A stretch of 64,000 nt of DNA from Dictyostelium discoideum (Eukaryota). The notes beneath the pieces were generated by a model. That model did no database searches, had not been told where the DNA came from, and worked only from the letters and a program-made list of their open reading frames with translations. Below are positions 7,435-42,656 of this stretch, piece after piece (the stretch's first letter is position 1; each line of letters begins with the position of its first letter). Made by a program: the position numbers and the translations under genes. The DNA is taken from contig CM000150.2 of the NCBI GenBank assembly GCA_000004695.1, forward strand, positions 1,856,001-1,920,000, given 5' to 3'.

Positions 7435-7506
7435 GGCTCCATAGCATAGTGGTATTGCGCTTCCCTAGTAAGGAAGAGGTCATGAGTTCGATCCTCATTG
7501 GAGCCT
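7435..7506 (+). tRNA. tRNA-Thr (anticodon AGU)
   Basis: Cloverleaf folded by hand. Acceptor stem ggctcca/tggagcc; D-arm gcat-agtggta-ttgc; anticodon stem cttcc/ggaag with loop ctAGTaa (T33, A37); variable loop aggtc; T-arm atgag-ttcgatc-ctcat (B box gagttcgatcctc). 71 nt plus discriminator T; followed by T4. Confidence 0.9.
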
Positions 7507-8240: not shown

Positions 8241-8345
8241 AGATTTTGAAAATCTTAAAATTGGTTTATTCTTATAATTATTATTATTATTATTTTTAAA
8301 ATTAAAAAAGAAATTAGTTAATATTTTTTTATATTAAATAAATAT

Positions 8346-8948
8346 TTATATATGATTAAAATTATACAATACAATTATAAATGGATGATGTAATAAAGTT
8401 TGTGCATCTAATCTATCAGATAAATTAGTTGCTAAACAACTATGTAAGAAATCAAATTGTTCAGTTGGTAAATCATCAGGAATATTATTTAAAGATTTAT
8501 CTATCATTTTTAATAAAATAAAACCAAAACTCCAAATATCGGATTTATGAGTAAAATTATTTGATTTTAAAACTTCAGGTGATTGATAATCTTGATTTAA
8601 AAAATTAGTTTTTGTAACACCAAAATCAATTATTTTAATTGTAAGAGTTTCTGGAAAAATAATGACATTTGAACAATTTAAATCTCTATGTACAATTTGA
8701 TGATTATCCATAAAACGTAAAGCTAATAAAATTTGTTCACAAATTTCTCTAATAACTTCTTGTGAGAAAAAATTATTATTATCAAATTTATCAATTGAAA
8801 TTCCACCATTAATTGATTCCTGATAAATTATAACATTTTTTTCACTTTTTTTTTCATCAATATCATAGTGTTTTATAATTGATGGATGATTTAATTTTTT
8901 TAATTTATAAATTTCATTTTCATTCTAATTTTGTTAAATAAAAAAATA

Positions 8949-8979
<31 letters not shown>

Positions 8980-9086
8980 TATTTGGAATGAAAAACAATT
9001 TATTTTAAATTCCATTGTGTAAATAAAAAAAAACTTACATTATAATTTAATTTATTAATTTTTCTAATATCACATTCGATATCCAT
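8346..9086 (-). CDS. Truncated protein-kinase-like protein (C-lobe only; about 209 aa; 2 exons)
   Basis: Exon 1 spans 9086..9039 ([16 protein letters not shown], donor gtaagt is the reverse complement of 9033-38). Exon 2 spans 8924..8346 (acceptor ttag is the reverse complement of 8925-28): [21 protein letters not shown]...[13 protein letters not shown] (catalytic loop HRDLxxxN)...IIDFGVTK (DFG)...YQSPEVL (APE-like)...[11 protein letters not shown]...LHHPFI (subdomain XI). No GxGxxG loop or VAIK lysine anywhere upstream in frame. Confidence 0.6.
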
Positions 9087-10296
9087 TTTTTTATTATTAT
9101 CTATTATTTATTATTTATTGATTGTTCTCTTTGTTACTACTATAATTTTTATTTTATAATAGTTTTTTTTTTTTTTTTTTTTTTGTAAATAATAATTTTT
9201 AAATATTGAAAAGACACAAAATTATTATATAATAAAATTGAATATCAATTATTTTTTTTTTTTTTTTTTTTTAAAAAAAAATAATTAAATAATAAAAAAA
9301 ATAATAATAATTTATATAAAAAAATAATAATTTAAATAATTTTTTTTTTTTTTTTTTTAATTATCAAAAGATAAATTTTTAATTGAGGATCCTGTATATC
9401 GTATAGATTATATACAACACCACACAGTTAACACATATAAAAATAAACACATATTAATAACCAATACATAGTCTCAACACACACTTTTTTTTTTTTGCTT
9501 GTGTGGTTCCTATAATTTTTTCTTTCAAAAACAAAAAAAAAACAAAACAAAATCAAATTGGGGGTCACATGAATTGAAATTATTTATTTATAATTAAAAT
9601 ATTTTTTATTACTAATTGTTTTTTTTTTTTTTTTGAATTATTTTTTTTGAATACCAAGACATCAAAAATTTTATATCACTATTTTTACAATTATTATTAT
9701 TTTTTTTTTATTTATTAATTATTATTTTTTTTTTTTTATTTTTTTTTTTTTTTTTTGTGGGTGTGTTATTTGTGTATTGTATAAAATTTTACTGAATTAT
9801 TTTTGTGTTTGATTTTAGTTCAACGAATATGAAAATGTTTAAAAATAAATCGTATATGGGAACATGATGATGTTATATTTTTACATTATGATAATTAAAT
9901 AATCAAAAAAAAAAAAAAAAACAAATATAAAAATAAAAAAACACTTCTTTCCAATTTAGGAATATATCTTGATCCAATAAATGTAACAATATTATTTAAA
10001 TAAATTATTTGATTAATATGTATAATTATAATAATATTAAAAAAATAAATGTCCAATTTTTTTTTTTTATTTTATCATTGTTTAAAAAAATTAATGATTC
10101 TTAAATAATAGAGTTTTCCTCAATAATTAATTATAAAAAAAAAAAAAAAAATTCTTAATATTATTTGAATGTGAATGATATAAAATATATTAAAAAAAAA
10201 TATATATATATTTAATTATAACCAACAAATTTTTTTTTTTTTTGAACTACAAAGAATTCTTTTAATATATAGTTTATTATTTTCTTCTTTATTTTC

Positions 10297-10476: not shown

Positions 10477-10521
<45 letters not shown>

Positions 10522-13500
10522 TTCATCCTCGTCTTCGTCTTCGTCCTCATCTTCATCATCATATTCATCTTCAGAATCTGAATGAGGTTGAATTAATCCA
10601 TTTGGATTTAAATAGTCATATTCTTGAATTTGTTGTTCTAAAACACTGATACCTTTGGAATCAATTGAGACCATTGAGTTTATTGAATGAACATATTGAC
10701 AAAATGGACCCCAAGTTCTATCTTTTTTTAAGAGTTTAGAATTACCAATTACAAATAATCCAAATTTAGCTCTTGTGAGTGCGACATTAATACGTCTACG
10801 ATCAGAAAGGAAACCAATTCTTTCGCTTCTTACACACGATAAAATTATGATATCTTTTTCTGAACCTTGAAAACCATCAATTGTTGATGTTTCAATATTT
10901 AATGGATAATTAAACTGTTTATGTTGTTCTTTGATTTCACTCTTTTGTAATTTATATGGCGTAATAATACCAAATGAGAACTTTTTACATTCTGGATAAT
11001 CTTGAACTAACTTTTTAATCAATGTGAATACCATTGTGATTTCTAATTTATTCTTTAATGATCTTTTACCACTTTCTTCTTTTGAATCAATAACATCATA
11101 GAATCTAATTGGACCATATTTGATATCTGAATGGAAATTATGTTGATTGTATACTAATGACTTTACATTATCACCATCTAATAATCTGTCTCTATAGAAT
11201 TGATTTGATGGGAATCTTGAAATTGTTGGATGCATACGATATTGAACATGTAACATTTCAACTGGTAATACTTTTGATAATCTTTCGAATAATGATATAT
11301 TTAAACCATTTTCTGCACTTTCTGTAGAGAAGATAGTTGGTGGTAATTGTAATGGATCACCAACGAGAATTAACTTTTCAATATTACCAATACATAATGG
11401 AATTATTGATGATGGTTCAGTTGATTGAGTTGATTCATCTACTAATATAATATCTGCTCTAAAGTTGTTCTTAACAGTTTCAGAACCACTTCCAGATAGA
11501 GTTGAGAAAACAATGGATGCTCTATAGATACTATCAGATTTCTCACGTTGAGTTTTATTGAAAATTGAAATACTATGACAATCTGGTGATATATTTTCCT
11601 TTTTACCAATACGTACCATATTTGGTAAATAAGGTTTACCATCTAAACCTATTAATTTCTTTTTTGAACATCTCTTTGCAATTTCATCTACTGATGCATG
11701 TGATGGACCACATACTAATATCTTGAATTCTGGATTAATTGCTAATAAAATTGAAAGTAAATAATAAATTGTTGTAGTTTTACCAGTACCTGGTGGACCT
11801 TGAATTAATGTAATACCTTTTGTTGATAATGATGTTTCAATTGAATTAAATTGTGATGTATTCAATTCTTGAATACACATGGATCTCAACAATGATGGAA
11901 TAGCCATTCTCTTTGAGGATAGTATATCGTGGTCTTTTCTTGATGGTTGTAAAATTTGATCAAATAGTATTCCAGAATTTCTAAAATCTTTTATTGCATT
12001 CAACTCTCTAATGAATGTAATGCAATTTGAAACTTTTATAAAGTATAACTTTTCTTTTATAGTATTGGAATCTTTCAAATAGTTTTTATGATTGAATGAA
12101 ATTGAATCAAACATTTCTATTATAGGATCCATTGAATCTGATGAATGAAATTTACATTTTACAATTTGTGTATTCTCTTCTAAATCAACATTTGAACAAT
12201 TGAGTACTAAACCCATTGCAAACATTGGTTCATTGGTATTATCAAATACTTTAAAAAGTAAAACATCATTATAAAATAATTCTTGGGACCCATCATTTAC
12301 ATCAATTTCAAACTTCATAATTGAATAGTCGGATATCTCTTTAAATGAGTGAATTGTTGGTCCATCAATCATCTTAATTTTATCTAAACCTATTAATGTA
12401 CCATCTTTTTCTGATATTGAAACACCTTCAATTTCATCAAATTCACCTGCAAGTTGTTTCCTATATTCCTCCACTATCAAAGGTTTCATTAAATCCATAT
12501 ATTCTTCATGATTTGAGTAACTTGATTTCAAATTTCTAATACTATTCACCTGTATTAATGGAATTCTTTCTGGACTAATCTTTAAAAATATTGATAATAT
12601 TTCGTAAGGACTCTTTAAAAAAACACTAACTAATTCACGAATTAATACAATTTTTAAAAAATTTTCATTATTATTATAATTGTTTTTATTATTATTATTA
12701 TTAAATTTATTATTTGATTTGGTTGTTGTTGTTGTAGTAGTTGTTGGTGTTGTTGTTGGTGTTGGAGTTGGTGTTGATGATGAGTTTATTAAAACCTTTT
12801 CATTTTTAATTAATTGATAAATTTCATTAAATAACAATTTTGAAATTAAGGTTAACCTTTCAGAGTTTAATAATTTAAAAGTTGGAATTTTAATAGCGGA
12901 ACGATTAATTTTTGTTTTAGATTTAAATTTTTTGATAAAACCATCAGAGAATTTACCTCTAATTAAATCTAAAAAGTTTAATTTAGTTTCATTATTTCTC
13001 TCTAATTCTAATTTCAATTGATCTGAATTTATGGGTCTAAAAGTTTTTGTTTTTTCTTTTAACTCTGAAATTTGTGAGAAATGGTTGAATTCTATCATTA
13101 CCATTAATGATAATGATTTTTGATAAATTGAATCAATATTTTCAGTATTTATATTATTTCTTTGAACCATTGAAATATCGTGTATTAATCTAATTTTTAA
13201 AACTTGAATATGCATATTAAATTGATTTTTGTTCTCATCAATTATTTTCTTTACTTGTTCTAATGATGGTTGATAAGATGGATTCAATTTTGATAATGTA
13301 TCCAATTTTCTAAAAATTAAATCTGCACTATTTGAATCTTCAAATATTAAATTTAATAAACTACGTTTCAATGGTTGGTTTATATCAAAAGTGGATGAAC
13401 CACTTTGAGGTGTTGTTGTTGTATGAGTGGTTGCGGTTGTGGTGGTTGTGGTAGGTGAAAGTGAATCTGGTTCAATCACTGATTTAGTTGAGGCAATTTT

Positions 13501-16843: not shown

Positions 16844-17354
16844 ACAAGTTTAACAGGTTCATCAGATTTAACAGGTTTAACTGGTACAGGTAAAGGTTTT
16901 TACAGGTTTAGCAGATTCAGGTAAAGGTTGTCAGGAAGATTATAAATCTACCTATGCACTATGACATTAGGAGTGGTTTAATATTTTTTAATACTTAGAC
17001 AATAATAACAATAAAAAAACAAAAAAAAATTTTATTTTTATTTCTTAAAAAAGTAAACAAAATAAATAAAATAGAAATTTTGCCTATTGCAATAGTAAAG
17101 ATACAATTTTTAAAAATTTAAAATCGAAGTCATAATTTAATAAATAAAAATAAAAATAAAATTATTTGTTTTTTTAAATAATTCCCATGGAATTTAGATT
17201 TTGCCTTAAGAAATCTATCCGTAAATATTTTTACAAGATTAAAAAAAAAAAAAAAATTCAAATTTACTTGTCCTTTTATTTATTTTAATTTAAACAAAAA
17301 AAAAAAAAAAATGGTTTGGGTATTATTTTTTAATTTTTTTTTTTTTGTAAAACT

Positions 17355-20300
17355 CTAAGAAAGTAATCCATTTGACGATAATGATAAATTCTCTTTGAAT
17401 AAATCATTAATTGTTGTTTTGGTTGATCTTAAAGAATATTCCATCATTGTGAATTCCATTAATACTCTTTGGTATGTTTTTTTAATTGATGATGCTAAAT
17501 TTCTATCATTAATAAATGGATCAAGTACAATGATATGACCTTTTACTGGTGTACCCTTTATAGTTGATCTTTTTAATAATGCTCCATTTTCACATAAACT
17601 ACCACCACCACTTGAGTGACTAATTGATATGATATTCTCTTTATAATTAAATGTTGAATAATAATAAAAGAATTGATAAAACAATTGAGCGATTGTCAAT
17701 TTGTTTCTTTTTGGTTCAAATTTGTTAAAACTTGACCAATCATAATATTTAACTAAATAATTTTCTACGATTGTTTGTGATTTTAATTTAATTAAATTTC
17801 TATCTGTTGAATACTTTTCTAATAGTTGATTTGATGTTGTTTGTAAATTTGGTAAAATTGGTGGATTTAATGACTGAAGGAAATGAATTACCATATTAAC
17901 TAAACAGAATGAACTAAATGTTTTCTCTGCTGCATTATTTAAATCTTTTGAAACTGCCCACCATTTTACTAATAATGCTAAATCTCTACATCTTTTATCA
18001 ATTGAACAATATTCACCTAACAATAATGAATTGTGATAACTCATCATAGAATGAAAGCACATATCGAAATGAATACCTGATGATATCTCTTTGAATCTAA
18101 TGATTGGTACTTTTGCACTAATTCTTTTTTCAATTAATTTATATAGTTGAGATCTATTTAAATATTTATAAACTTGTTTTAAATGAGTTGTATCTTCTTT
18201 TTGAGTACTTGAGAAATTAATATCTAAATCACTATCATTCAATGATAATCCACTCAAGAATGAACCATATAAATTAATTGATGCTGTTGCGAAACCTTCT
18301 GATATTAATTTCTTTAATCTATTATAACTATCTTGTTTAATTGATTTCTTTTTACATTCAATTTTTGAAATAATTTCATTAAGAGAATTATTTGTTTTTG
18401 ATGATGATAAAGATTGTGAAATTTCTTGTATTTCTAAATTATTTAAAACTTTCTTTAAATATGAATCCAAGAGACGTGAATATTTAACAAAACTATCTCT
18501 TAATGTTTTCTTTTTTGATAAAGTTGATTGATCTATTTTTTCTTGATTTGATTTTTGTAATTCTATAATAATATTAATAAGAGTGTTTGGAAAATCTTTA
18601 TCAATGATTAAATTATTTGAATCTGGTGAAACTGTCTCATCTTCATCATCATCATCGCTGATACTATAATATTCATCATCATCATCATCCAAATCATCAT
18701 TATCTTCACCTTCTTGATTAATTTTCTTGATTCTATTACTTTCATCATCTTCATCATGCTCTTGTATTTCTTCATTATCTTCATCTTCGTCTTCCTCTTC
18801 ATCTTTACCATCATATTCATCTTCAGAATCTGAATGGAATTCAATTAATCCATTTGGATTTAAAGAGTCATATTCTTGAATTTGTTGTTCTAAAACACTG
18901 ATACCTTTAGAATCAATTGAGACCATTGAGTTTATTGAATGAACATATTGACAAAATGGACCCCAAGTTCTATCTTTTTTTAAGAGTTTAGAATTACCAA
19001 TTACAAATAATCCAAATTTAGCTCTTGTGAGTGCGACATTAATACGTCTACGATCAGAAAGGAAACCAATTCTTTCACTTCTTACACATGATAAAATTAT
19101 AATATCTTTTTCTGAGCCTTGAACCCCATCAATTGTTGATGTTTCAATATTTAATGGATAATTAAACTGTTTATGTTGTTCTTTGATTTCACTCTTTTGT
19201 AATTTATATGGCGTAATAATACCAAATGAGAACTTTTTACATTCTGGATAATCTTGAACTAACTTTTTAATCAATGTGAATACCATTGTGATTTCTAATT
19301 TATTCTTTAATGATCTTTTACCACTTTCTTCTTTTGAATCAATAACATCATAGAATCTAATTGGACCATATTTGATATCAGAATGGAAATTATGTTGATT
19401 GTATACTAATGACTTTACATTATCACCATCTAATAATCTGTCTTTATAGAATTGATTTGATGGGAATCTTGAAATTGTTGGATGCATACGATATTGTGTA
19501 TTTAACATTTCAACTGGTAATACTTTTGATAATCTTTCAAATAATGATATATTTAAACCATTTTCTGCACTTCCTGATGAGAAAATAGTTGGTGGTAATT
19601 GTAATGGATCACCAACAAGAATTAACTTTTCAATATTACCAATACATAATGGAATTAGTGAAGCTGGTTCAGATGATTGAGTTGATTCATCTACTAATAC
19701 AATATTTGCTTTAAAGTTACTTCTAACAGAACCAGAACCACTTGCTGAAAGAGTTGAGAAAACAATATTTGCATTTCTAATAATTTCTTTTCTTTGTGCT
19801 GGTGTTTTGTCATAGGGTGATATACGATGACAATCTGGTGATATATTTTGAAGTTTACCAATACGTACCATATTTGGTAAATAAGGTTTACCATCTACAT
19901 TTATTAAACTCTTTTTTAAACATCTCTTTGCAACTTCATCTACTGATGCATGTGATGGACCACATACTAATATCTTGAATTTTGGATTAATTGCTAATAA
20001 AATTGAAAGTAAATAATAAATTGTTGTAGTTTTACCAGTACCTGGTGGACCTTGAATTAATGTAATACCTTTTTTTGATAATGATGTTTCAATTGCATTA
20101 AATTGTGATGCATTCAATTCTTGAATACAAATGGATCTTAACAATGATGGAATCTCCATTCTCATTGATGTCATTAAATTATAAACTTCCAATGATGGTT
20201 GTAAAATTTGATTTAAAAGTGTTTTTGAATTTTTAAACTCTTCTGTTGCTTCTAATTCTCTAATGAATGTAGTACTATTAGAAACCTTTATAAAATGTAA

Positions 20301-23300
20301 AATATCTTTTGAATATCTTTTCGAATTCAATGAAACTGAATAAAACTTTTCAATTAATGGTTTCGTTGAATCCGATAATACAAATTCGCAAATTATTTTT
20401 TGTTTTTTACTTTTTAATTCTGAAGATCTTGTAACTAAACTCAATGCAAACATTGGTTTATTTGTATGATCAAATGCTTTAAAAAGTAAAATATCATTAA
20501 GGTATATTTCCTCTAATTCATCCTTAACTTTAATATTAAATGTAATTTCAACAGAATCCTCCGACAACTCTTGGAATGAATGAATTGTTGGTGTATCATT
20601 CATTTTAACTCTATCTAAACCTATTAATGTACCATCTTGTTCTGATATTGAAATACCTTCAATTTCATCAAAATCACCTTCGAGTTGTGCTCTATATTCT
20701 TCTACTATTAAAGGTTTCATTAAATTTACAAATTCTGATTGGTCAGAATAACTATCTTGTAATGAATGAATATTATCAGCTTGAATTAATGGAATTCTTT
20801 CTGGATTACTCTTTAAAAATATTGACAATATCTCTTCAGAATCTTTTGAAATTACTTCAACATGATCACGAACTAAAACAACTTTTCTATTATTATTATT
20901 GTTATTTCTTGATCTTATTGTAGTTGTTGCAGTTGCTGTTCCTGTTGGGGATTTGATAAACAACTTTTCACTTTTAATTAATTGGTGAATTTCATTAAAT
21001 TGTAACTTTGAAATTAAACCTAACTTTTCAGAGTTTAATAATTTAAAAGATGGAATCTTTAAAGTTGAACCATTGATTTTTGTTGTTGATTCAAAGTTAC
21101 TGACGAGATTATCAAAGAATTTACCTTTAACTATATTTGAAAATTCTAACTTCGTTCTATTTTTTTTTGCTAATTCTGAATTCAACTGATTGTATTTGTG
21201 TCTACAAGTCTTTGTTTTTTCTTTTAATTCTGAATACTGTGAGAAATGATTAAACTCTAATAATACCATTAATGATAATGACTTGTTATATATTTTTTCA
21301 ATATTTTGATTGCTTGTATTATTTTTTTGAATCTTTGAAATATCTGTTTTTAATCTATTTTTAATAGCATTAATAGTTGAATTAAATTGAGTTATACTCT
21401 CATTGATAATATCATTCACTTGTTCAATTGATTTTTTCTTTGATGGATATGATTTAAATAATCTATCCAATGTTTTAATAATTGAATCTGCACTAGTTGA
21501 ATCTTCAAATATTAATTTCAATAAACTATGTTTCAATGATTGGTTTATATCAAATGTAGTAGTAGCAGCACTAGTATTATTAGAAGCAGATGATGCTGTA
21601 GTTGATTTATCTGTTGATGTTGTTGCAGAGGTATTTGCAGTGGTTGAGGTTGTTGTTGTTGTTGTTTTTGTTGTAGCTTTATCTTTTATAATACTAGTGG
21701 TAGTTGAAGCTGTAGGTGTTTTTGAACTTGTTGTATTAGATATTTTTTGTGAATTTGAAAGTGATAAATCTTTATAATCTAATACTAAAGATTTTATATG
21801 AATTATAAAAGATTTTATTAAAGTTCCAATTGTATTATCACTTTCATTTTTATGACCAAGTGGTAATTTAAATAATTCTACATTCATCACATATTCAGTT
21901 TTTTTAGATTTAATATTTAATTTTACTTGTTCTGGAATATAGTTTGAAATGTCTATTGATTTTTGATCAATAAATGCTTCAACTTTAATACAAAATCTTT
22001 GGTGGTGAGTATTCAATAAATTGAATGCCTCTGATCTAGAATCCAAAAAGGTTGGTGAGTTTTTAACTGTGAAATTTTTATCAAAATATTCTTTAATATA
22101 ATTTCTTTGCACTAAATTACTAAATTCAATTAATGAAATGATTGTAAAAATTGTTTCATTAATTTCATTAAATTTTGATGGATTTACACTTGATTTTAAT
22201 AATTTTCTTATATCTTTTGATGTACCAATTCTATAAGATTCAGTCTTTTTTTTGAATGGTAAAACTATGTCTTTTACCATTGATTTAATTGAATCTATTT
22301 GTAAATTAAATGTTGGATATTGATTCTTTAAACTATCAATTGCTTCTGGTTTGTTAAAAAATGTATTAAATAATGAAAATATTTGTTTTTCAATATTTGA
22401 TGGTGTCTTCAAAATTACTGTTGGTATATTTGATAATAATTCTTTTGGTGTTGATGTTGGTGTTGGTGTTGGTGTTGGTGTTGGTGTTGGTGTTGGTGTT
22501 GGTGTTGGTGTTGGTGTTGGTGTTGGTGTTGGTGTTGGAGTTGGAGTTGGAGTTGGAGTTGGTGTTGGTGTTGGTGTTGGTGTTGGTGTTAGTGTTGGTA
22601 TTGGTTGTGTTGTTGTTGTTGAGTTTGATAAAAGTTGATAATCTAAAATTAAAGATTTTATATAAATCAAATGTGATTCGATTAATGTTCCAATGGTATT
22701 ACTTTCGATATTCTTGTGACCAAGTTCTAATTTAAATAAACCAATATTAAATAAAACTTTTTTAGAATCTAATTCTAACTTCAATGGTTTTGGAACAAAT
22801 TTTGAAACAAAAGATGGATTTTGACTAATAAATTCCTCTAGATTGATTTTTGATTTTTGATATTGAGTTTCCAATAAACCAAAAGCCTCTAATTGTAAAC
22901 TTGCTTGGTGTGTGATTTTGACTATATTTTTTTCAATATATTTTTTAACACTACTTCTTTGGATTAGATTACTCAACTCTATTAATGAAATGATTGTAAC
23001 AAATATTGTTACAATTTCATCAAACTTTTTTGAATTTATCTTTGAATTCAATGATTTTTTAAGTTGATTTAATGTTGTAATTTTCACTGAATCAATATTG
23101 GTTTGACTTTCTTTTATAAAAGTTTCAACTGATAATAATTCTGATTTAAAACCTGGGTATTTTTTAATCAAACCTTGAATATCTTCTGATCTGTGGAATA
23201 ATTTATTAAAAATTGAAAAAACTACGATTTCAGTAGTTGTTGGTTTTGTTTGTTGTTGGCTATTTATAACTTTTGATACCAATGATGGTGATGTTGCTAA

Positions 23301-24413: not shown

Positions 24414-25041
24414 TTACAATTGTTGATTATTTTTTTTTTTTTCTTTAATTTTTTTTTTTTTTTTTTTTTTGGATCTTTGTTTTTTTTTTTTTTTTCTATT
24501 TTTTTTTTTTGAGAAAATGAGAAATTAGGTTTAAAAAAAAAAAAAAAAAATTTGTCAAATTTAAATTCCCGTAAAATTTTTTTTTTTTTTTTTTTTTTTT
24601 CACGAAAAAAAAGGGAAATTTAAATTTGAATCAAAAAACCATTTTTTTTTTTTTTTTCATTTTATTTTTTTTTATTTTTTTTTACCAAAATGATTTAAAC
24701 TTATTTATTTTTAATTTAAATTTGGTTTAGATAAATAGAACACAAAAATACACAAAATTATATAAAAAATAAAAAAAATGAATGTAGTCATCCCATTTTA
24801 TTTTTTTTTTTTTTTTTTTTTTTAATATTTTTATAAATCACCAGAAATTCAAAATATCTCTCGCTTTTATAAAATCAAAAAACTATGGGTAATTAATTTA
24901 AAAAAATTGGATATCTCCAAAGTAAAAAAAAAAAAAAAAATACAAATTTACTTGTCCTTTTTATTTATTTTAATTTAAACAAAAAAAAAAAAAAATGGTT
25001 TGGGTATTATTTTTTAATTTTTTTTTTTTTTTAAAAAAACT

Positions 25042-28000
25042 TTAAGAAAGTAATCCATTTGACGATAATGATAAATTCTCTTTGAATAAATCATTAATTG
25101 TTGATTTGGTTGATCTTAAAGAATATTCCATCATTATGAATTCCATTAATACTCTTTGGTATGTTTTTTTAATTGATGATGCTAAATTTCTATCATTAAT
25201 AAATGGATCAAGTACAATGATATGGTCTCTTACAGCTCTACTCCTTATATTTGATCTTTTTAATAATGCTCCATTTTCACATAAACTACCACCACCACTT
25301 GAGTGACTAATTGATATGATATTCTCTTTATAATTAAATGTTGAATAATAATAAAAGAATTGATAAAACAATTGAGCGATTGTCAATTTGTTTCTTTTTG
25401 GTTCAAATTTGTTAAAACTTGACCAATCATAATATTTAACTAAATAATTTTCTACGATTGTTTGTGATTTTAATTTAATTAAATTTCTATTTGTTGAATA
25501 CTTTTCTAAGAGTTGATTTGATGTTGTTTGTAAATTTGGTAAAATTGGTGGATTTAATGATTGAAGGAAATGGATTACCATATTAACTAAACAGAATGAA
25601 CTAAATGTTTTCTCTGCTGCATTATTTAAATCTTTTGAAACTGCCCACCATTTTACTAATAATACTAAATCTCTACTTCTATTATCGATTGAACAATATT
25701 CGCCTAACAATAATGAATTGTGATAACTCATCATTGAATTAAAACACATATCGAAATGAACACCTGATGATATCTCTTTGAATCTAATGATAGGTACTTT
25801 TGCATCCGTTCTTTTTTCAATTAATTTATATAGTTGAGATCTATTTAAATATTTATAAACTTGTTTTAAATGAGTTGTATCTTCTTTTTGAGTACTTGAG
25901 AAATTAATATCTAAATCACTATCATTCAATGATAATCCACTCAAGAATGAACCATATAAATTAATTGATGCTGTTGCGAAACCTTCTGATATTAATTTCT
26001 TTAATCTATTATAACTATCTTGTTTAATTGATTTCTTTTTACATTCAATTTTTGAAATAATTTCATTAAGAGATTTATTTATATTTGATGAGGATGATGA
26101 TAAAGATTGTGAAATTTCTTGTATTTCTAAATTATTTAAAACTTTCTTTAAATATGGATCCAAGAAACGTGAGTGTTTTATAAAATTATCTCTTAATTTT
26201 TTCTTTTTTGATAAAGTTGATTGATCTATTTTTTCTTGATTTGATTTTTGTAATTCTATAATAATATTAATGAGAGCATTTGGAAAATCTTTATCAATGA
26301 CTAAATTATTTGTATCAAATACTTCTTCATCTTCATCATACTCTTCGCTGATACTATGATATTCTTCATCACCATGCTCATTATCATCATCATCATCATC
26401 CTCCAAATCATCATTATCTTCACCTTCTTGATTAATTTTCTTGATTCTATTACTTTCATCATCTTCATCATGCTCTTGTATTTCTTCATTATCTTCATCT
26501 TCGTCTTCCTCTTCATCTTCACTATCATCATAGTCATCTTCAGAATCTGAATGGAATTCAATTAATCCATTTGGATTTAAAGAGTCATATTCTTGAATTT
26601 GTTGTTCTAAAACACTGATACCTTTAGAATCAATTGAGACCATTGAGTTTATTGAATGAACATATTGGCAAAATGGACCCCAAGTTCTATCTTTTTTTAA
26701 GAGTTTAGAATTACCAATTACAAATAATCCAAATTTAGCTCTTGTGAGTGCGACATTAATACGTCTACGATCAGAAAGGAAACCAATTCTTTCGCTTCTT
26801 ACACACGATAAAATTATGATATCTTTTTCTGAACCTTGAACTCCATCAATTGTTGATGTTTCAATATTTAATGGATAGTTAAACTGTTTATGTTGTTCTT
26901 TGATTTCACTCTTTTGTAATTTGTATGGTGTAATAATACCAAATGAGAACTTTTTACATTCTGGATAATCTTGAACTAACTTTTTAATCAATGTAAATAC
27001 CATTGTGATTTCTAATTTATTCTTTAATGATCTTTTACCACTTTCTTCTTTTGAATCAATAACATCATAGAATCTAATTGGACCATATTTGATATCTGAA
27101 TGGAAATTATGTTGATTGTATACTAATGACTTTACATTATCACCATCTAATAATCTGTCTTTATAGAATTGATTTGATGGGAATCTTGAAATTGTTGGAT
27201 GCATACGATATTGTGTATTTAACATTTCAACAGGTAATACTTTTGATAATCTTTCAAATAATGATATATTTAAACCATTTTTTGCACTTTCTGATGAGAA
27301 AATAGTTGGTGGTAATTGTAATGGATCACCAACAAGAATTAACTTTTCAATATTACCAATACATAATGGAATTAGTGAAGCTGGTTCAGATGATTGAGTT
27401 GATTCATCTACTAATACAATATTTGCTTTAAAGTTACTTCTTATTGGTTTAGAACCACTTGCTGATAGAGTTGCGAAAATAATAGTTGCATTTCTAATAA
27501 TTGCTTTTCTTTGTGCTGGTGTTTTATCAAAAAGTGATATACGATGACAATCTGGTGATATATTTTGAAGTTTACCAATACGTACCATATTTGGTAAATA
27601 AGGTTTACCATCTATATTAACTAAACTCTTTTTCAAACATCTCTTTGCAACTTCATCTACTGATGCATGTGATGGACCACATACTAATATCTTGAATTTT
27701 GGGTTAATTGCTAATAAAATTGAAAGTAAATAATAAATTGTTGTAGTTTTACCAGTACCTGGTGGACCTTGAATTAATGTAATACCTTTTGTTGATAATG
27801 ATGTTTCAACTGCACTAAATTGTGATGTATTCAATTCTTGAATACACATGGATCTCAACAATGATGGAATCTCCATTCTCATTGATGTCATTAAATTATA
27901 AACTTCCAATGATGGTTGTAAAATTTGATTTAAAAGTGTTTTTGAATTTTTAAATATTTCCGGTGCTTCTAATTCTCTAATAAATGTAGTACTATTAGAA

Positions 28001-31000
28001 ACCTTTATAAAATGTAAAATATCTTTTGAAGTTTTCGAATTCAACGAAACTGAATAAAACTTTTCAATTAATGGTTTCGTTGAATCCGATAATACAAATT
28101 CGCAAATAATTATTTGTTTTTTACCCTTTAAAACTGAATTTGATGTTACTAACCCCAATGCAAACATTGGTTTACTAGTATGATCAAATGTTTTAAAAAG
28201 TAAAATATCATTAAGGTATATTTCCTCTAATTCATCCTTAACCTTAATATTAAATTTAATTGCAACCAAATCCTCTGACAACTCTCGGAATGAATGAATT
28301 GTTGGTGTATCATTCATCTTAACTCTATCTAAACCTATTAATGTACCATCTTGCTCTGAAATTGAAACACCTTCAATTTCATTAAAATCACCTTCGAGTT
28401 GTGCTCTATATTCTTCTACTATTAAAGGTTTCATTAAATTTACAAATTCTGATTGGTCAGAATAACTATCTTGTAATGAATGAATATTATCAGCTTGAAT
28501 TAATGGAATTCTTTCTGGACTACTCTTTAAAAATATTGATAATATCTCTTCAGAATCTTTTGAAATTACTTCAACATGATCACGAACTAAAACAACTTTT
28601 CCATTATTATTATTATTATTATTACTATTATTGTTATTTCTTGATCTTATTGTAGTTGTTCCTGTTGAGGAGTTGACAAACAACTTTTCACTTTTAATTA
28701 ATTGATAAATTTCATTAAATTGTAACTTTGAAATTAAACCTAACTTTTCAGAATTTAATAATTTAAAAGATGGAATCTTTAAAGTTGAACCATTGATTTT
28801 TGTTGTTGATTCAAAGTTACTGACGAGATTATCAAAGAATTTACCTTTAACTATATCTGAAAATTCTAATTTCATTTTATTATTTTTTGCTAATTCTGAA
28901 TTCAATTGATTGAGGTATTGTCTACAAGTCTTTGTTTTTTCTCTTAATTCTGAATACTGTGAGAAATGATTAAACTCTAATAATACCATTAATGATAATG
29001 ACTTGTTATATATTTTTTCAATATTTTGATTGCTTGTATTATTTTTTTGAATCTTTGAAAAATCTGTTTTTAATCTATGTTTAATACCATTAATATTTGT
29101 ATTAAATTGAATTTTACTCTCATTGATTATATTCCTAACTTGTTTAATTGATTCTTTGTTATAAGGATGTGATTGTGATAATCTATCCAATGTTTTAATA
29201 ATTGAATCTGCACTATTAGAATCTTCAAATATTAATTTCAATAAACTATGTTTCAATGAATGGTCATTCTCAAATGTTGTAGTAGTATTATTATTAGAAC
29301 TAGGTGATGGTACTATTGATATTTGTGATGTTGTTGTTGGTGATGGTGCTGTTGTTGTAGCTTTATCTTTTATAATACTAATGGTAGCTGAAGCTGTGGG
29401 TGTTGTTGAACTTGTTGTATTAGATATTTTTTGTGAATTTGAAAGTGATAAATCTTTATAATCCAACACTAAAGATTTTATATAAATAATAAAAGATTTT
29501 ATTAAAGTTCCAATTGTATTATCACTTTGATTTTTATGACCAAGTGGTAATTTAAATAACTCTACATTCATCGTATATTCAGTTTTTTTAGATTTAGATT
29601 TAATATTTAATTCTACTTGTTCTGGAATATAGTTTAAAATATCTATTGATTTTTGATCAATAAATGCTTCAACTTTAATACAAAATCTTTGGTGGTGAAT
29701 ATTCAATAAATTGAATGCCTCTAATTTAAAATTCAAAATATCTTGTGAGTTTTCAACTGTGAAATTTTTATCAAAATATTCTTTAATATAATTTCTTTGA
29801 GAAAGATTACTAAATTCAATTAATGAAATGATTGTAAAAATTGTTTCATTAATTTCATTAAACTTTGATGGATTTACACTTGATATTAATAATTCCTGTA
29901 CAGCTTTTGATGTATTGTTTTTATGAAATTCAATCTTTCTTTTGAATAATGAAATTATATCCTTAGTCGCTGATTTAATTAAACCAATTTGTAAATTAAA
30001 TGCTGGATATTGATTCTTTAAACTATCAATTTCCTCTGGTTTATTAAAAAATGTATTAAATAATGAAAATATTTGTTTTTCAATATTTGATGGTTTCTTC
30101 AAAATTACTGTTGGTATATTTGATAATAACTCTTTTGGTGTTGTTGGTGTTGGTGTTGGTATTGGTGTTGGTGTTGGTGTTGATGTTGGTGTTGGAGTTG
30201 GAGTTGATGTTGGTGTTGGTGTTGATGTTGGTGTTGGTGTTGATGTTGACGTTGGAGTTGTGATTGTTGGTGGTGGTACTGGTACTGGTACTGGTTTTAT
30301 TTCTGTTGGTGATGCTGTTGTTGTAGTTGTTGAGTCTGATAAAAGTTGATAATCTAAAATTAAAGATTTTATATAAATCAAATGTGATCCGATTAATTGT
30401 CCAATGGTATTACTATCGTTATTTTTGTGACCAATTTGTAATTTAAATAAATCAATGTTAAATAAAACTTTTTCAGATTTTAATTCTAATTTCGATGGTA
30501 CTGGAACGAAATCTAAAACATTAGATGATATAGTTTGACTAATGAGTTTTTCTAAATCAATTTTTAAACTTTGATGTTGAATTTCTAATAAATTGAAAAG
30601 CGATGGATGTATTCTCTTTGGATTGGGTAAATGTTTTTTAAGAGTAATTCTTTGGTAAAGATTACTAAACTCTATTAATAAAACGATAGTAACTAGTGTA
30701 GTTTTAATTTCTTCAAATTTTATAAAGTTAATCTTTGAATCCAATGATTTTTTAAGTTGATTTAATGTTGTAATTTTCACTGAATCTATGATACTTTGAA
30801 ATGATGTTTGGTTTTCTTTTATAATTGTTTCAACTGATAATAATTCAAATTCAAAGATTGAGTGTTTTTTAATCAAATCTTGAATACCTTCTAATTTGTA
30901 GAAAATTTTATAAAAAATTGAAAAAACTATGATTTCAGTAGTTGTTGGTTCCATTGTGAATATTGTTGATGATGATGATGATTCCACTGTTGGTGATTTT

Positions 31001-32712: not shown

Positions 32713-33080
32713 TATTTTTTATTTTATTTTCCACCTTTTTTTCCCTTCACTCTTTTTTTTTTTTTTATATCTTTATCGTTTTTGTTGAAAAAAAAAATAA
32801 AAAAAAAAAAAAAGAAAAAAAAAATTTTTCTTTTTTTTCAATCTTTTTTTTTATCCCTCATTTTTTTTGTTTTTTTCTTTTTTTTTTCGGAACTTATTTA
32901 TTCCACCATTAAAAAAGATGGGAATAAATGGTGGAATAAATAAGTTCAGAAAAAAAAAACACAAAGTATGAATTTTTTTATTATTAAAGTCTATTTATTT
33001 TAATATTTTTTTTTTTATTTATTTAAATTATTTTATTTTATTTTTATTTTATTTATTTTATTTTTTTTTTTTAGTAGTTC

Positions 33081-36563: not shown

Positions 36564-36572
36564 AACCCATAA
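36564..36572 (+). promoter_or_regulatory. DUSE (Dictyostelium upstream sequence element, aacccataa) about 63 bp upstream of ncRNA gene 1
   Basis: Matches the [AT]CCCA[CT]AA consensus found at about -60 of Dictyostelium snRNA and Class I RNA genes (established knowledge). Confidence 0.6.
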
Positions 36573-36628
36573 TAATTTTTTTTTTTTTTTTGTTTTAAAT
36601 TAAAAATGGAATAAAATATGAAGATTAC

Positions 36629-36735
36629 AAGGGCTTCTTACAGCAAAATAAAGTAAATAAATAAGGTGTAGAATAGGTGGGAGACTATGTCGGCCGTGAA
36701 ATACCACCACTAATTAAAAAAACTTCGATCCCTGT
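36629..36735 (+). ncRNA. Class-I-like small ncRNA (about 107 nt)
   Basis: 5' aagggcttcTTACAGCAAaa carries the Class I RNA hallmark motif (CC)TTACAGCAA just after a 5' stem half. The 3' end ..gatccctg can pair with the 5' aaggg. Followed by T9 (terminator-like). DUSE at -63. Internal motif aggtgggagact..cgtgaaataccacc is shared with gene 2. Confidence 0.55.
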
Positions 36736-37066
36736 TTTTTTTTGTCAAACACCTTGTTATTACCATATTTTACCTTGGAAATTTTTTCATTTTTTTATTT
36801 TTTTTTTACCAACTATTATTTTTTTTTGCAACATTGTATTGGTATAAATAGACACACAAAAATAAAACAACCAAACCAATTTTTTTTTTTTTTTTTTAAT
36901 TCCAAAAAACCAAATTTTAAAATATTCCCAACTTGTTGTTCTTCAAAATAAAAAATAGTAATAAAAAATTAATAATAAAAAAACAATAATAAAAAGGATA
37001 TTTTTTTTTTCTTGTCTATTTCTTTTTTTTTTATTTGAAGGATTTTGGAAAAAAAAAAAAAAAAAA

Positions 37067-37075
37067 AACCCATAA
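37067..37075 (+). promoter_or_regulatory. DUSE (aacccataa) about 63 bp upstream of ncRNA gene 2
   Basis: Same consensus and same spacing as at gene 1. Confidence 0.6.
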
Positions 37076-37129
37076 TAAAAATTTTTATTTATTTTGACTT
37101 TAATTTAAAAAAAAATTAAAAAAATATTT

Positions 37130-37272
37130 TAAGGGCTTCTTACAGCAAAATTAATACAAAGTAAATTAAAACCAAAGTGTGTAGGATAGGTGGGAGACTT
37201 TGGTCAAGCGTGAAAGACCACCCCTTAGATTTAATTAAACCTACTTCTGAAAAGAAGGAAAACTTGAGCCCT
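37130..37272 (+). ncRNA. Class-I-like small ncRNA (about 143 nt), paralog of 36629-36735
   Basis: aagggcttcTTACAGCAAaa... with 5' agggct pairing 3' agccct; followed by T7. Shares taggtgggagact and cgtgaaagaccacc blocks with gene 1. Longer than canonical 42-65-nt Class I RNAs. Confidence 0.55.
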
Positions 37273-37643
37273 GTTTTTTTGAGTGAATTTAATATTGAGC
37301 CTTTTGGAATTGGTTGAATGTAACATTCAATCCTAACAGTTGTCGAGGAAATTGCGCTACACGAGGAGTAATAACCAATCTTTAACATTAATGGTGTTGA
37401 ATTTTTTGAATTGTTGGGTAATGAAAAAATAAGAATGAAAAAGTTTTAATTTAATTTTTTTTTTTTTTTTATTATTTTTTTTTTGTGATATTATTCGGTG
37501 GTATTCGTTGGGAAAGTGTTTGAAAAAGATTTTTTTTTTTTTTTAAAATTATTATTTTCTTCTTTGGTTGAAATAAAAAATTCAAAAATAGTAATTCAGA
37601 GTAAGGGCATAATTTGATAATTGTAAAACGAGTTTTGGATTTG

Positions 37644-37808
37644 TTAAATTCCACCTTTTGGACCAAGTTTATTAATCAATGAAGCTATCATTTTTAAATT
37701 ATTTCCAAAATTAATTTGAACTGATTTAGAATTAATTTCAAATGTTGTGTTTGAAGATAATGATGATGACGATTTATTTGAAATTTTAGTTAAAGTAGTG
37801 AAAATCAT
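37644..37808 (-). CDS. Small ORF family member (54 aa: MIFTTLTKISNKSSSSLSSNTTFEINSKSVQINFGNNLKMIASLINKLGPKGGI)
   Basis: ATG-to-stop ORF, below the 60-aa cutoff of the supplied table. One of four related small ORFs within the duplicated units. Confidence 0.35.
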   Translation of the reverse strand: MIFTTLTKISNKSSSSLSSNTTFEINSKSVQINFGNNLKMIASLINKLGPKGGI

Positions 37809-38279
37809 TTTTTAATTGAATATATTTTATTGAAAAAGAAATATTAGATTTTTTTTGATTTTATTTTTTTTTTGATTTATTTGGATAATGAAATAAAATT
37901 AATTTTCATTTTTGATTAAATAGTTTTTTTTCTTTTTTTTTTTTTTTTATTTAATTGTTTTAAAAAAAAAAAATAGAAATTTAAAATAAATAAATAAATA
38001 AATAAAAAGTTATAAATGGAACCGATATTCACAGTATAGTTATTTAACAAATAAATGTTTTCGATAATAATAATTTTAAAAATGAATAAGTAAGTTAAAT
38101 GAGGATTATCTAATCATTTTAATTTTTGATTAAATCAGATTGAAGAGGTATTACCAACTGAAAAATTATAAATATAATGATAGTACCAATTTTATTGTGT
38201 AAAAAATAATAATCGTTTATACACCCAATTTTATAAATTACTCCACAATACAAAAATTATTTCACCCCACATATTTCTT

Positions 38280-38321
<42 letters not shown>

Positions 38322-38492
38322 GGGTTGAACAGAATTATTTTAGTTAGAATTTAAATTAATTGTTTAAAAATAATTAATATATAAATAAATTTTTGATCAT
38401 TTGTAAATAATTATAACAAAGTATTTTGGTTTTAATTTCAAATAAAAAAAATAATATTACTTTTAAAAGAAGTTAGAATTTTAGATTATTGG

Positions 38493-38528
<36 letters not shown>

Positions 38529-39259
38529 AATATAATTTTAGGTTCAAAGGAATTAAAGATTATTATAAAGAAAAAAATAATTTCATTGGAATTTTGTTTT
38601 TGTTTTTCTAATTATATAGAATTTTTTTTTTTTTTTTAAACAAATAATTATTAATCATTGAATTGAGTTTTTTTTTTTTTTATATTGAAAACCTTAAATT
38701 ATTTTGTTAAACCACTTAAAAAAAAATGAAAAAATAATTAATAAATAAAAACAAATAATTTAAAAATAAAAAAAGGGGTGAATTATGTGTTTGTAATTTG
38801 TGGATTACTCACGATTAAAAGTGAAATATTTGTGTAAAAATGAATTTTATTTGTTCAATAAATAATTGTACTGAATAACCACTATCATAATATTGTTATT
38901 CTTCAGTTGAATATTTATTTTTGATTTTATTCTCTCAATCACTCATATCCAATTATATCATCAATATAATGTTAAGATTAACTTATTTCTCATTTTTTAT
39001 TTTATACATTCTCAAACATCTACTTGTTAAATTCTATTTTTAACATTTATAATTTATTTTTTATTATTTTATATTATATTTTATTATTTTTTTTTAAAAG
39101 TATTTAATAAAAAAAAATGATTTTTCATTTCTTTTCATTATTCAATACAAATAAAATATTATAAAATATAATACAATTAATTAAATAATATAATTTAATA
39201 TAAAAATATAATTTAATTTAATAATTAATAAAAATAAAAATAAAAAATTTAAATAAAAA

Positions 39260-39433
39260 ATGATTTTCACTTCATTAACTAAAATTTTAAATAAATCTTC
39301 ATCATCATCCTTAAATAAAACCTTTGATATTGACCAAAAATCAATTGCAATTAATTTTGAAAAATCAAATATTCAAGTTTATACAGTTTTAAATCCACTT
39401 GGTCCTCAAGGTGGTGTAGGCCCATACTTTTGA
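39260..39433 (+). CDS. Small ORF family member (57 aa: MIFTSLTKILNKSSSSSLNKTFDIDQKSIAINFEKSNIQVYTVLNPLGPQGGVGPYF)
   Basis: ATG-to-stop. About 50% identical to the minus-strand member, with a shared N-terminus MIFT[ST]LTKI.NKSSSS and C-terminal LGP.GG. Lies in inverted orientation within the same duplication unit. Confidence 0.35.
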   Translation: MIFTSLTKILNKSSSSSLNKTFDIDQKSIAINFEKSNIQVYTVLNPLGPQGGVGPYF

Positions 39434-40311
39434 TTTTATTTTAATCCAAAGAAGAAAAAAAAGATTTCCATCAAACTCTACAAAACAAAACTTTCCGAAT
39501 CAAATATAACCAACCATATGGGTTTAAAAACGAATTTAAAAATCGAAAAACAAAAAAATAAACTATTAAATAAAATTTATACTTTAATTTTAAAATCTAT
39601 TTTTTATTTTAAAGCCTATTATTTTTTTTATTTTATTTTTTATTTTTAAAAAAAAACTAAAAATTAAAAACTAATTAATACTGATTTAATAATAAATTAT
39701 TCATAACACGAGTTTTTGTTTGTTTTACAAGGCGAAAAAAAAAATCAAAAAGAAGAATTAGTTGTTTTGGTCATTTTATTTGCCAAAAAAAAAATTTAAA
39801 AAAAAAATTAAAAAAAAGAAAAGAATAATTTTGAGTTTTTTTTTTAAAACTAAATAACCAAATTAATTGTTTTAGTCATAATATTTATTTTTATAAATTT
39901 AGTTTTATTATTTTTTAACTATTTTTAAGATTTTTCTCATTTTATTTTTATTAATTATTTTCATCATTTTAATTATCACTTTATTTTTATTAGAAATTCT
40001 CATAATTTTAAGAATTTTATTTTTTTGAAAAAGAAGAATAAAAACATAAAAAACTAAAAAAAAATAACTGTAAAAAAAAGAAAGTTTTATTTAATTTTTA
40101 TTTTATTTTATTTTATTTTATTTTTATTTTATTTAATTTTTATTTTTTGTGATTTATATTATTCGGTGGTATTTGTTGGGAAAGTGTTTGAAAAAGTTTT
40201 TTCTTTTTTTTAAAATTATTATTTTCTTCTTTGATCGAAATAAAAAAATTCAAATATGGTCATTCAGAGTAAGGATATAATTTGATAATTGTAAAACGAG
40301 TTTTGGATTTG

Positions 40312-40476
40312 TTAAATTCCACCTTTTGGACCAAGTTTATTAATCAATGAAGCTATCATTTTTAAATTATTTCCAAAATCAATTTGAACTGATTTAGAAT
40401 TAATTTCAAATGTTGTGTTTGAAGATAAAGATGATGATGATTTATTTGAAATTTTAGTTAAAGTAGTGAAAATCAT
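40312..40476 (-). CDS. Small ORF family member (54 aa; copy of 37644-37808 with one Asn-to-Asp change)
   Basis: ATG-to-stop; duplicate in unit 2. Confidence 0.35.
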   Translation of the reverse strand: MIFTTLTKISNKSSSSLSSNTTFEINSKSVQIDFGNNLKMIASLINKLGPKGGI

Positions 40477-41614
40477 TTTTAAATTGAAAAAGAAATATTA
40501 GATTTTCTATTTTTATTTTTATTTTGTTTTGATTTATTTGGATAATGAATTAAAAAGAATTTTCATTTTTGATTAAATAGTTTTTTTTTTTTTATTTAAT
40601 TGTTTAAAATAAAAAAAAATTAAAAAAAAGTTATATATAGAACTAATAATCACAGTATAGTTATTAACAAATAAATGTTGGATATTAAAAATTAATTATT
40701 TAAAAATAACTAATATAAATAAATATTAGATCATTTTGTAAATAATTTTACCAAAGTATTTTAATTTCAATTTAAAAATTTGTATTACTTTCAAAAGAAT
40801 TAGGAATTTAAGATTTAAAAAAAAAAAAAAAAAAAAAAAATTTAATATAATTTTAGGTTCAAAGGGACTTAAAGGAATTAAAGATTATTTTAGAGAAAAA
40901 AAATGATTTCATTGGAATTTTGTTTTTATTTTTTTATTTTAATTTTATAGAATTATTGATTTTTTTTTTTTTTTAACAAATAATTATTAATCATTGAATT
41001 GAGTTTTTTTTTTTTTAATAATTGAAATCTTAAATTAATTTGTTCAACCACTTGAAAAAAATTTAAAAAAATGAAAAAATAATTAAAAAAATAAAAAAAA
41101 TAAAAAAAATAAAAAACAAATTATTTTAAAATAAAAAAGGGGTGAATTATGTGTTTGTAATTTGTGGATTCGTCACAATCAAAAGTGAAATATTTGTGTA
41201 AAAATGAAAATTATTTGTTCAATAAATAATTGTACTGAATAGCAACTATCATAATATTGTTATTCTTCAGTTGAGTATTTATTTTTGATTTTATTCTCTC
41301 AATCACTTAGATCCAATTATATCATCAATATAATATTAAGATTAACTTATTTCTCGTTTTTTATTTTTACATTCGCAAGCATCGACTTGTTAAATTCTAT
41401 TTTTAACATTTATAATTTATTTTTTATTATTTTATATTATTTTTTTTATTTCAAAGTATTTAATAAAAAAAAAAAAATGATTTTTCATTTCTATTCATTA
41501 TTTAATACAAATAAAATATTATAAAATATTATAAAATTAATTAATCAATATAATTTAATATAAAAATATAATTTAATTTAATATAATTAATAAAAGTAAA
41601 AATTTAAATAAAAA

Positions 41615-41791
41615 ATGATTTTCACTTCATTAACTAAAATTTTAAATAAATCTTCATCATCATCCTTAAATAAAACCTTTGATATTGACCAAAAATCAAT
41701 TGCAATTAATTTTGAAAAATCAAATATTCAAGTTTTTTCAGTTTTAAATAATCCACTTGGTCCTCAAGGTGGTGTTGGCCCATACTTTTGA
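41615..41791 (+). CDS. Small ORF family member (58 aa: MIFTSLTKILNKSSSSSLNKTFDIDQKSIAINFEKSNIQVFSVLNNPLGPQGGVGPYF)
   Basis: ATG-to-stop; duplicate of 39260-39433 in unit 2. The differences are mostly conservative. Confidence 0.35.
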   Translation: MIFTSLTKILNKSSSSSLNKTFDIDQKSIAINFEKSNIQVFSVLNNPLGPQGGVGPYF

Positions 41792-42656
41792 TTTTATTTT
41801 AATCCAAAGAAGAAAAAAAAGATTTCTACAAAACAAAACTTTCCGAATCTAATATAACCACCCATATGGGTTTATAAAAAAATTACAAACGAATATAAAA
41901 ATCGAATAACAAAAAAATAAATTATTAAAAAAATTTTATTCTTTAATTTTAAATCTATAAATATATTTTTTTTTTCTTTTTTTTTTTTTTTTTCAAAAGA
42001 TAGTACTATTTTTTATTATAAAATAACTTTAATTGTGACCAATTTAGAATATTGTTGGTTGTAATTTAATTTGATTAATTGATGATCAACTAATTCGATA
42101 ACTGATTTATTAAATTTCAATTCCACAGAAATATTGTCGCCTTTAGTTGAAATTTGTGAATCATTTAATTTGCATTTCAATTATTGGAGTTGAGTGATTG
42201 AAAGTGTAATTTTTACCATTTGGCCATTAATTCATCGGAATAGAACATGTTCTTACTTTTTGATGAATTTATACAGTTGAAATCCAACTCCAACCTAGTT
42301 AAAGCAAATGACCATTTCGAGTAATATCAATAACATTTGTTTGACTTGTTTAATATTAAAATTAATACATTAATTTATTAAAATACTCACTTATATTTAA
42401 TGCAAAATTAAAAAAATTATAATGAAATAAATAAAAAATATTGGTTTAATCTCTTTTTGTTTTTATTTTTTTTTTTTTTTATTTATTTTTTTAAAGAATT
42501 AAAATTTGTTAATGTTTATTCTATTTTTAACATTATAGCCCATAATTAAATACACCACAATAAAAATGATAATAAAATACAAAAATTTAAACATTCCCAC
42601 TTTAACAACACAAATCAAATACACAATAAAAATGTTGGAAAATGATTTTGGTTTAC

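Follow-up and report, generated by a model that had tools for sequence, protein, structure and literature searches.

Four short open reading frames (ORFs) lie close together in a 64,000-nucleotide stretch of Dictyostelium discoideum AX4 chromosome 1 (positions 1,856,001-1,920,000; the whole stretch is called the window below). The described genes that come nearest to them in kind are those of small serine-rich proteins of the same species, namely the hssA/2C/7E family, also known as sigN, and a protein reportedly named serine-rich chaperone protein 1 (SRCP1) and reportedly 88 amino acids (aa) long. The hssA/2C/7E family (Pfam PF05710, 'Coiled') comprises 96 small proteins rich in serine, cysteine and glycine, which are encoded by clustered developmental genes (Vicente et al. 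2008, PMC2257962). Expression of the sigN genes is clear from 10 h of development onwards, and 89 of the 96 share one structure, in which a first exon with a 13-nt ORF is followed by a short intron and a second exon (PMC2257962). SRCP1 has been described as belonging to this sigN-type class, and deletions of single genes of the class gave no phenotype (PMC8554618), so redundancy is to be expected for the genes considered here as well.

The four genes form two head-to-head pairs within a tandem duplication. In copy A, m1 on the minus strand is paired with p1 on the plus strand, and in copy A', m2 is paired with p2; the m-type genes encode 54 aa and the p-type genes 57 or 58 aa. All four (DDB_G0268670/72/74/76) carry the annotation 'hypothetical' in AX4. 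We propose that they are probably members of a real small-protein gene family that is tightly regulated in development, restricted to Dictyostelium, and grown by inverted, dispersed and then tandem duplication of units made of a gene and its promoter. The locus itself is an annotated but uncharacterised gene cluster and not a new kind of system. The initial annotation, made from the letters of the window, had described four intact ORFs from ATG to stop, arranged as an inverted pair inside a tandem repeat. Their positions and translations matched those found here and the layout was supported; the homology that it had seen between the m-type and p-type proteins also holds, and the identity, put at about 50%, is corrected to 54-58%. 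Each gene is a single exon, the m and p start codons of a unit are separated by 1.45 kb, and the inverted m/p homology extends beyond the 5' two-thirds of the ORFs (about 80% identity) to some 540 bp upstream of each ATG. A tblastn search found exactly four family members within the window.

The proteins and their likeness to the sigN family

The proteins of the family have 53-71 residues, are rich in serine and asparagine and are mostly disordered. They share a common order of elements, in which an N-terminal helix, MIFT[ST]LTKI[LS]NK, is followed by a serine run, a KS[IV]xINF core and a C-terminal [NK][PK]LG[PN][KQ]GG[VI]. An AlphaFold2 prediction with 11 sequences contained the N-terminal helix only (residues 3-10), with a mean predicted local distance difference test (pLDDT) score of 52.7 and low confidence for the rest. 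A profile search of the PDB revealed no relative with a solved structure, and Pfam scans of the members matched no family. The suggestion that the products might be secreted or antimicrobial peptides gained no support: they have no hydrophobic leader, no member contains a cysteine, and the net charge is just +2 to +5; no sign of a signal peptide or a cationic amphipathic peptide was seen in Kyte-Doolittle means over 15 residues (at most 0.93, and 0.06-0.49 for the N-terminal 15 residues), no dedicated predictor being run.

A search for further members had been recommended at the outset, and profile searches yielded four more AX4 paralogs, DDB_G0268688, DDB_G0268690, DDB_G0278467 and DDB_G0283179. 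Outside AX4, the relatives consisted of a single protein of a different D. discoideum assembly, plus two from sequencing-run assemblies. An exhaustive hidden Markov model search of 1.84 billion representative proteins returned nothing else convincing, the remaining low matches being long repetitive proteins. A word-indexed homolog search returned D. discoideum proteins and two sequencing-run assembly contigs only, a scan of metagenome contigs found no relatives, and a literature search found the gene IDs named in the main text of no paper.

The likeness to sigN is considerable. In both cases the proteins are shorter than 120 aa, serine-rich and restricted to dictyostelids, and the genes are tandem or clustered, near-identical and provided with conserved promoters. 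The first dozen residues are similar (MIFTSLTKILNK in our family, M[TS]ILSALTSISNP in sigN), and a serine-rich stretch is then followed by an S-[IV]-A motif. A very divergent sigN offshoot that has neither intron nor cysteine would show these alike N-termini, serine-rich stretches and motifs, both groups being small, clustered, Dictyostelium-restricted gene families (PMC2257962), and such a descent would be compatible with the gene family that we propose. However, it is unlikely in view of the following results. First, none of five members matched PF05710 in hmmscan at E<=10, whereas an hssA-like positive control matched over the whole profile at 5.6e-25. Second, hhalign of the family against seven hssA/B-like proteins aligned 11 N-terminal columns only, with a probability of 1.25% (P=0.042). 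Third, the m/p genes have no 13-nt first exon and no intron, and their proteins are shorter than the 75-93 aa of sigN (Table 1 of PMC2257962). Fourth, the sigN cysteine pattern NS[VI]ACG.CG, the C-terminal CGC[HN] and the Gly-rich body were not found in these cysteine-less proteins, which have no Gly/Cys-rich tail. The families also differ in that sigN is clearly expressed, whereas no m/p transcripts were found in the tables examined. Membership in sigN was rejected because PF05710, hhalign, gene structure and cysteine content were all against it, and the m/p genes are therefore filed as an orphan family in its own right, though one of the same general kind. SRCP1 is likewise small and Dictyostelium-specific, a likeness taken from its description, and the m/p family failed to match the sigN-type class to which it belongs. 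By analogy, the small disordered products may act like other developmentally regulated small serine-rich proteins of D. discoideum.

Coding constraint on the ORFs

Comparison of copies A and A' revealed that the coding sequences (CDS) have changed less than the DNA between them. There were 6 mismatches among 339 aligned positions in the CDS (98.2% identity) as against 107 among 1389 in the non-coding part (92.3% identity), a significant difference (Fisher p=1.3e-5). The CDS contained one indel, of 3 nt, whereas the non-coding part contained 27, of which 21 were not multiples of three; all indels in the intact ORFs of the family were multiples of three. The ratio of non-synonymous to synonymous rates (dN/dS, Nei-Gojobori) was 0.12-0.57 among intact copies. 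In the orthologous pair LpB-L2, 6 synonymous changes were found as against 3 non-synonymous ones (p=0.0026), and a synonymous excess was also significant for p1-LpB (p=0.014), m1-p1 (p=0.029) and L2-L3 (p=0.016).

The reading frames have also stayed open where stop codons should arise easily. The ORFs have a G+C content of 18-26%, shuffled sequences of the same composition retain an open frame in no more than 0.4-1.1% of trials, and a random single substitution would make a stop in about 6.5% of cases. No internal stop was present in eight intact copies, while the five other frames of each copy contained 1-13. About 150 substitutions separate the copies by a rough tally, and about 10 stops would be expected under neutrality, an estimate made with no fitted model. 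The copies that were found by protein searches are intact by construction; of those found at the DNA level, 6 of 7 are intact. The initial annotation had argued from the preserved frames for a small-protein gene family, and this argument has gained ground: the synonymous excess, the indels in threes and the open frames, all read from the sequences, are signs of purifying selection and argue for such selection, though relaxed, on the protein.

Upstream modules, chromatin and transcripts

Every gene but m2 has an upstream module of about 290 bp, with a G+C content of 19-23% as against 4-12% in the intergenic DNA around it. The octamer GGGGTGAA occurs only three times in the 64 kb, once at the distal end of each module. 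Table S1 of Wang et al. 2021, in which DDB_G0268670 is chr1:1893644-1893808, lists differential peaks from the assay for transposase-accessible chromatin with sequencing (ATAC-seq) at window positions 37994-38394, 38667-39067 and 41012-41412 (PMC8094536). They sit about 190-600 bp upstream of the ATG of m1, p1 and p2, with fold values of -4.3, -3.25 and -1.9, respectively, and all three are more open in multicellular samples (PMC8094536). The peaks were open in multicellular and closed in unicellular samples in the frozen set, the fresh set and one further sheet, and peaks of like kind were listed at the DDB_G0268688 and DDB_G0268690 loci (PMC8094536). The upstream modules are thus closed in growing cells and open in multicellular stages. 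No peak was listed in the ATAC table of PMC8094536 for m2, whose module is lost, and this gene, naturally deprived of the module, could act as a built-in control. The m/p genes would accordingly be developmental genes whose expression after aggregation is either short-lived or confined to a small number of cells.

Between chromosomes 1 and 3, the proximal 300 bp of the upstream DNA were about 87% identical in 4 of 4 comparisons; the distal part reached about 87% against one chromosome-3 copy only and 73-74% against the other. In the same comparison the ORFs were 80-83% identical and synonymous sites about 69%. A further block 3' of the p-type genes was conserved in 4 of 4 p-units on chromosomes 1 and 3, and its CCATATGG occurs in the window at the two p-gene sites only. 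Folding of the modules as RNA showed no excess on either strand (z = 0.12 and -0.09), and they matched no Rfam family. The modules are best read as regulatory DNA. About 150 nt before the p-type start codons we also observed an upstream mini-ORF (39109-39156 and 41478-41524; the first copy reads MIFHFFSLFNTNKIL), which opens with bases, AAAAATGATTTTTCATTTC, similar to those at the start of the main ORF, AAAAATGATTTTCACTTC, and is conserved in the chromosome-3 copies too. It could be an upstream ORF within the 5' leader, or else the remnant of a duplication inside the gene.

Several observations weigh against a developmentally regulated gene family. First, and as its main weakness, transcripts have not been detected. 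All four genes had 0 transcripts per million (TPM) in the 11 RNA-seq samples (cup, stalk, spore and vegetative) of Kin et al. 2018, and DDB_G0268688 and DDB_G0268690 showed traces of 0.13-0.8 TPM in stalk samples (PMC6198379). The discarding of multi-mapping reads is not the cause of the zeros, since repeated DIRS1 elements have good scores in that table. At the streaming stage, the RNA of DDB_G0268676 was about 1e-7 (Table S5 of Wang et al., PMC8094536). The modules are thus open in multicellular stages, yet RNA is 0 or near 0 in the tables examined. The six chromosome-1 genes, that is, these four together with DDB_G0268688 and DDB_G0268690, were also absent from the tables of a 2026 life-cycle proteome and a 2024 multi-omics study. 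Second, a dN/dS of 0.4-0.57 between paralogs indicates relaxed constraint only, and the m gene at the chromosome-3 locus of another D. discoideum strain (L001) has a frameshifted C-terminus. Third, the modules are better conserved than the ORFs, and hence selection may act mainly on something other than the ORF. Fourth, neither CArG (CC[AT]6GG) nor alternating G-box patterns turned up in strict scans, so no transcription factor can be named.

These observations could mean that the ORFs are non-functional, either prediction artefacts or dying or nascent 'proto-genes' that resemble one another through recent duplication and gene conversion. Genes of this kind would be expected to leave no transcripts in the datasets examined and no entry in either protein dataset, to encode no confident fold, to lack homologs outside Dictyostelium and to include a frameshifted copy. 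However, an excess of synonymous over non-synonymous changes was seen in several independent comparisons, the substitutions tallied above have produced no stop, and the intact ORFs have gained or lost bases only in threes amid flanks full of other indels. Moreover, the frame is still intact in copies at dS 0.4-0.8, and recent conversion cannot by itself account for this. We therefore judge non-functional ORFs to be improbable. The initial annotation had named two findings that would speak against a gene family, a lack of expression evidence and a lack of synonymous excess; no transcript or protein was seen in the datasets examined, whereas synonymous changes did outnumber non-synonymous ones.

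It is also conceivable that the selected element is non-coding, either a regulatory module or an unannotated RNA in the 0.3-kb blocks, and that the small ORFs hitchhike. The greater conservation of the upstream blocks between chromosomes 1 and 3, their coincidence with stage-specific ATAC peaks and the conservation of the 3' block would all suit such an element. However, the blocks show neither excess RNA folding nor a match to an Rfam family, and the open frames, the 3-nt indel pattern and the dN/dS below 1 would be left unexplained; a conserved promoter beside a conserved ORF is the look of an ordinary regulated gene. We consider a purely non-coding target very unlikely.

The C-terminal GG of the proteins is invariant and is followed by 1-7 residues. 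Ubiquitin-like proteins, which have a beta-grasp fold, and Pup, a disordered tag with its own ligase, were both considered for this conserved GG, and AlphaFold2 gives no fold for these proteins (the pLDDT of 52.7 given above). That m and p are kept together as a two-part module, whose processed LG[PN][KQ]GG[VI] end would serve as a short-lived developmental peptide signal or a conjugatable tag, would, if true, account for the tight regulation, the very low steady-state RNA and the missing fold, and is extremely improbable. As members of a small-protein gene family, which remains the reading that we prefer, the m/p genes would, if truly expressed, add to the lineage-restricted families of small proteins that social amoebae possess in large number and whose part in multicellular development is mostly obscure.

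Duplication history and surroundings of the locus

The window has a G+C content of 15-32%, with long A/T runs and AAT repeats, and the genes neighbouring the locus are cycH and a NELF-C/D gene. BLAST self-comparison revealed a direct repeat in three pieces: 37444-37941 vs 40106-40597 (89.8%), 37980-38059 vs 40603-40679 (87.5%) and 38353-39600 vs 40689-41958 (86.2%), with a period of 2662-2668 bp on the left side. The tandem duplication that had been proposed is thus real, at a period of about 2.66 kb, and is amended here to the layout A-B-A', in which a spacer of about 500 bp separates copy A from a shorter copy A' (1.85 kb) with a gap of 290 bp (Table 1). The homology of the 290-bp segment to the p-gene module marks it as ancestral, and the module of m2 was thus lost by deletion.

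Table 1. Position and description of the family members and associated features; numbers are window positions unless a chromosome is named.
Feature	Position	Strand	Description	Basis
Copy A	37444..39600		m1, both upstream modules, p1, 3' block	BLAST self-comparison and MAFFT alignment with A'
Spacer B	39601..40105		about 500 bp, unique, AT-rich (GC 12%), no second occurrence after A'	
Copy A'	40106..41958		m2, p2; without the ~290-bp segment holding the m-gene upstream module	
Copy-A-only segment	38055..38345		~290 bp, most of the m-gene module	gap in A/A' alignment
m1 = DDB_G0268670	37644..37808	-	54-aa m-type	ORF list; exact match to XP_646852.1
p1 = DDB_G0268672	39260..39433	+	57-aa p-type	ORF list; AX4 protein 100% identical
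m2 = DDB_G0268674	40312..40476	-	54-aa m-type, N33D relative to m1	ORF list, protein match
p2 = DDB_G0268676	41615..41791	+	58-aa p-type	ORF list; identical to annotated protein
m1 upstream module	37983..38270	-	GC 19%; GGGGTGAA at distal end, 38261-38268	homologous to inverted p1 module and to L001 9097-9375
p1 upstream module	38775..39060	+	GC 21%; begins with GGGGTGAA	~87% identical to one or both chromosome-3 copies
p2 upstream module	41139..41420	+	conserved	
3' block of p1	39478..39550	+	holds CCATATGG at 39514; p2 counterpart about 41827-41908	
DDB_G0268688, DDB_G0268690	chromosome 1, about 5-7 kb past window end	-	paralogs	
DDB_G0278467	chromosome 3		paralog	
DDB_G0283179	chromosome 4		paralog, 71 aa	

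At the chromosome-3 locus L001, a p gene (8149-8334, +), an m gene (8834-9019, -) and a second p gene (10001-10180, +) were found, and window 37679-39652 is collinear with L001 8887-10413. The presence of the same collinear pair there indicates that the m and p genes already stood head to head before the family was dispersed between chromosomes. The order of inverted duplication, dispersal, tandem copy and module deletion is shown by these comparisons, and the tandem copy in the window is the latest event in the family history, apart from the loss of sequence within it. As to how the family was built, an old inverted duplication gave rise to the m and p types, both of them equipped with an upstream module about 0.3 kb long, and the pair was then dispersed to other loci on chromosomes 1, 3 and 4. 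A recent duplication of about 2.66 kb on chromosome 1 copied the whole pair, and a later 290-bp deletion took away the m2 module. The description of the family as 'rapidly amplifying' therefore applies to the tandem copy alone, with about 7.7% non-coding divergence, and not to the m/p pair, which is old (dS about 0.6) and is also present at the chromosome-3 locus. The A-B-A' copy, in which the non-coding DNA has diverged by 7.7%, indels came later and the promoters were duplicated along with their genes, is an ordinary segmental duplication of a divergent gene pair, and nothing sets it apart from others save that the same pair has been kept at a second locus on another chromosome. It offers a compact case in which a gene and its promoter module were copied together by inverted, dispersed and tandem duplication. 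We also set aside a transposon origin: the unit lacks both terminal repeats and a transposase-like ORF, and its copies are collinear gene-plus-promoter segments.

In L001 7409-10413, two p-type genes and one frameshifted m-type gene were present, and AX4 yielded one protein there (DDB_G0278467). This suggests that copy number or annotation at the chromosome-3 locus differs between D. discoideum strains.

The same window contains a second repeated region on the minus strand, a tandem array of three roughly 8-kb units at 10297-32337. Its parts 17241-23245 and 24925-30950 are 91% identical over 6.1 kb, and the third copy, at about 10484-12693, has diverged further. The array ORFs encode 1747, 2245 and 2431 aa, and the two larger ones combine an Upf1-like superfamily 1 helicase (AAA_11/AAA_12) with a Cid1/TUTase-type nucleotidyltransferase and a PAP_assoc domain. 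With this array of giant genes on the same chromosome-1 stretch, the four-ORF locus sits in a duplication-rich region.

Just upstream of the m/p duplication, at 36565-36736 and 37068-37275 (+), we noted two genes for Class I-type non-coding RNAs, unusual in their size. Rfam model RF01414 is matched over its whole length by both, with 31.5 and 24.7 bits, below the gathering score of 41.5. The promoter element ACCCATAA lies exactly 66 nt upstream of each gene, and each begins with a 5' GGGC plus CTTACAGCAA and ends in CCCTGTTTT. They carry an extra insert, GTGTAG(A/G)ATAGGTGGGAGAC...GTGAAA(T/G)ACCACC, which matches about nt 2109-2140 of E. coli 23S rRNA in 5426 of the 5426 genomes searched. We take this segment of the rRNA to be the L1-stalk binding site for ribosomal protein uL1, and a Class I-type RNA with such an insert may be a small-RNA mimic of the L1 stalk; simple folding gave no significant z-score.

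At 32866-32981, sub-threshold Rfam matches to plant microRNA precursors were found on both strands of about 100 nt (MIR6426 with 41 bits and MIR6445 with 34.5 bits), which suggests a long hairpin or palindrome; it is probably a chance AT-rich inverted repeat. The sole tRNA gene of the window is a tRNA-Thr(AGT) at 7435-7506 (+).

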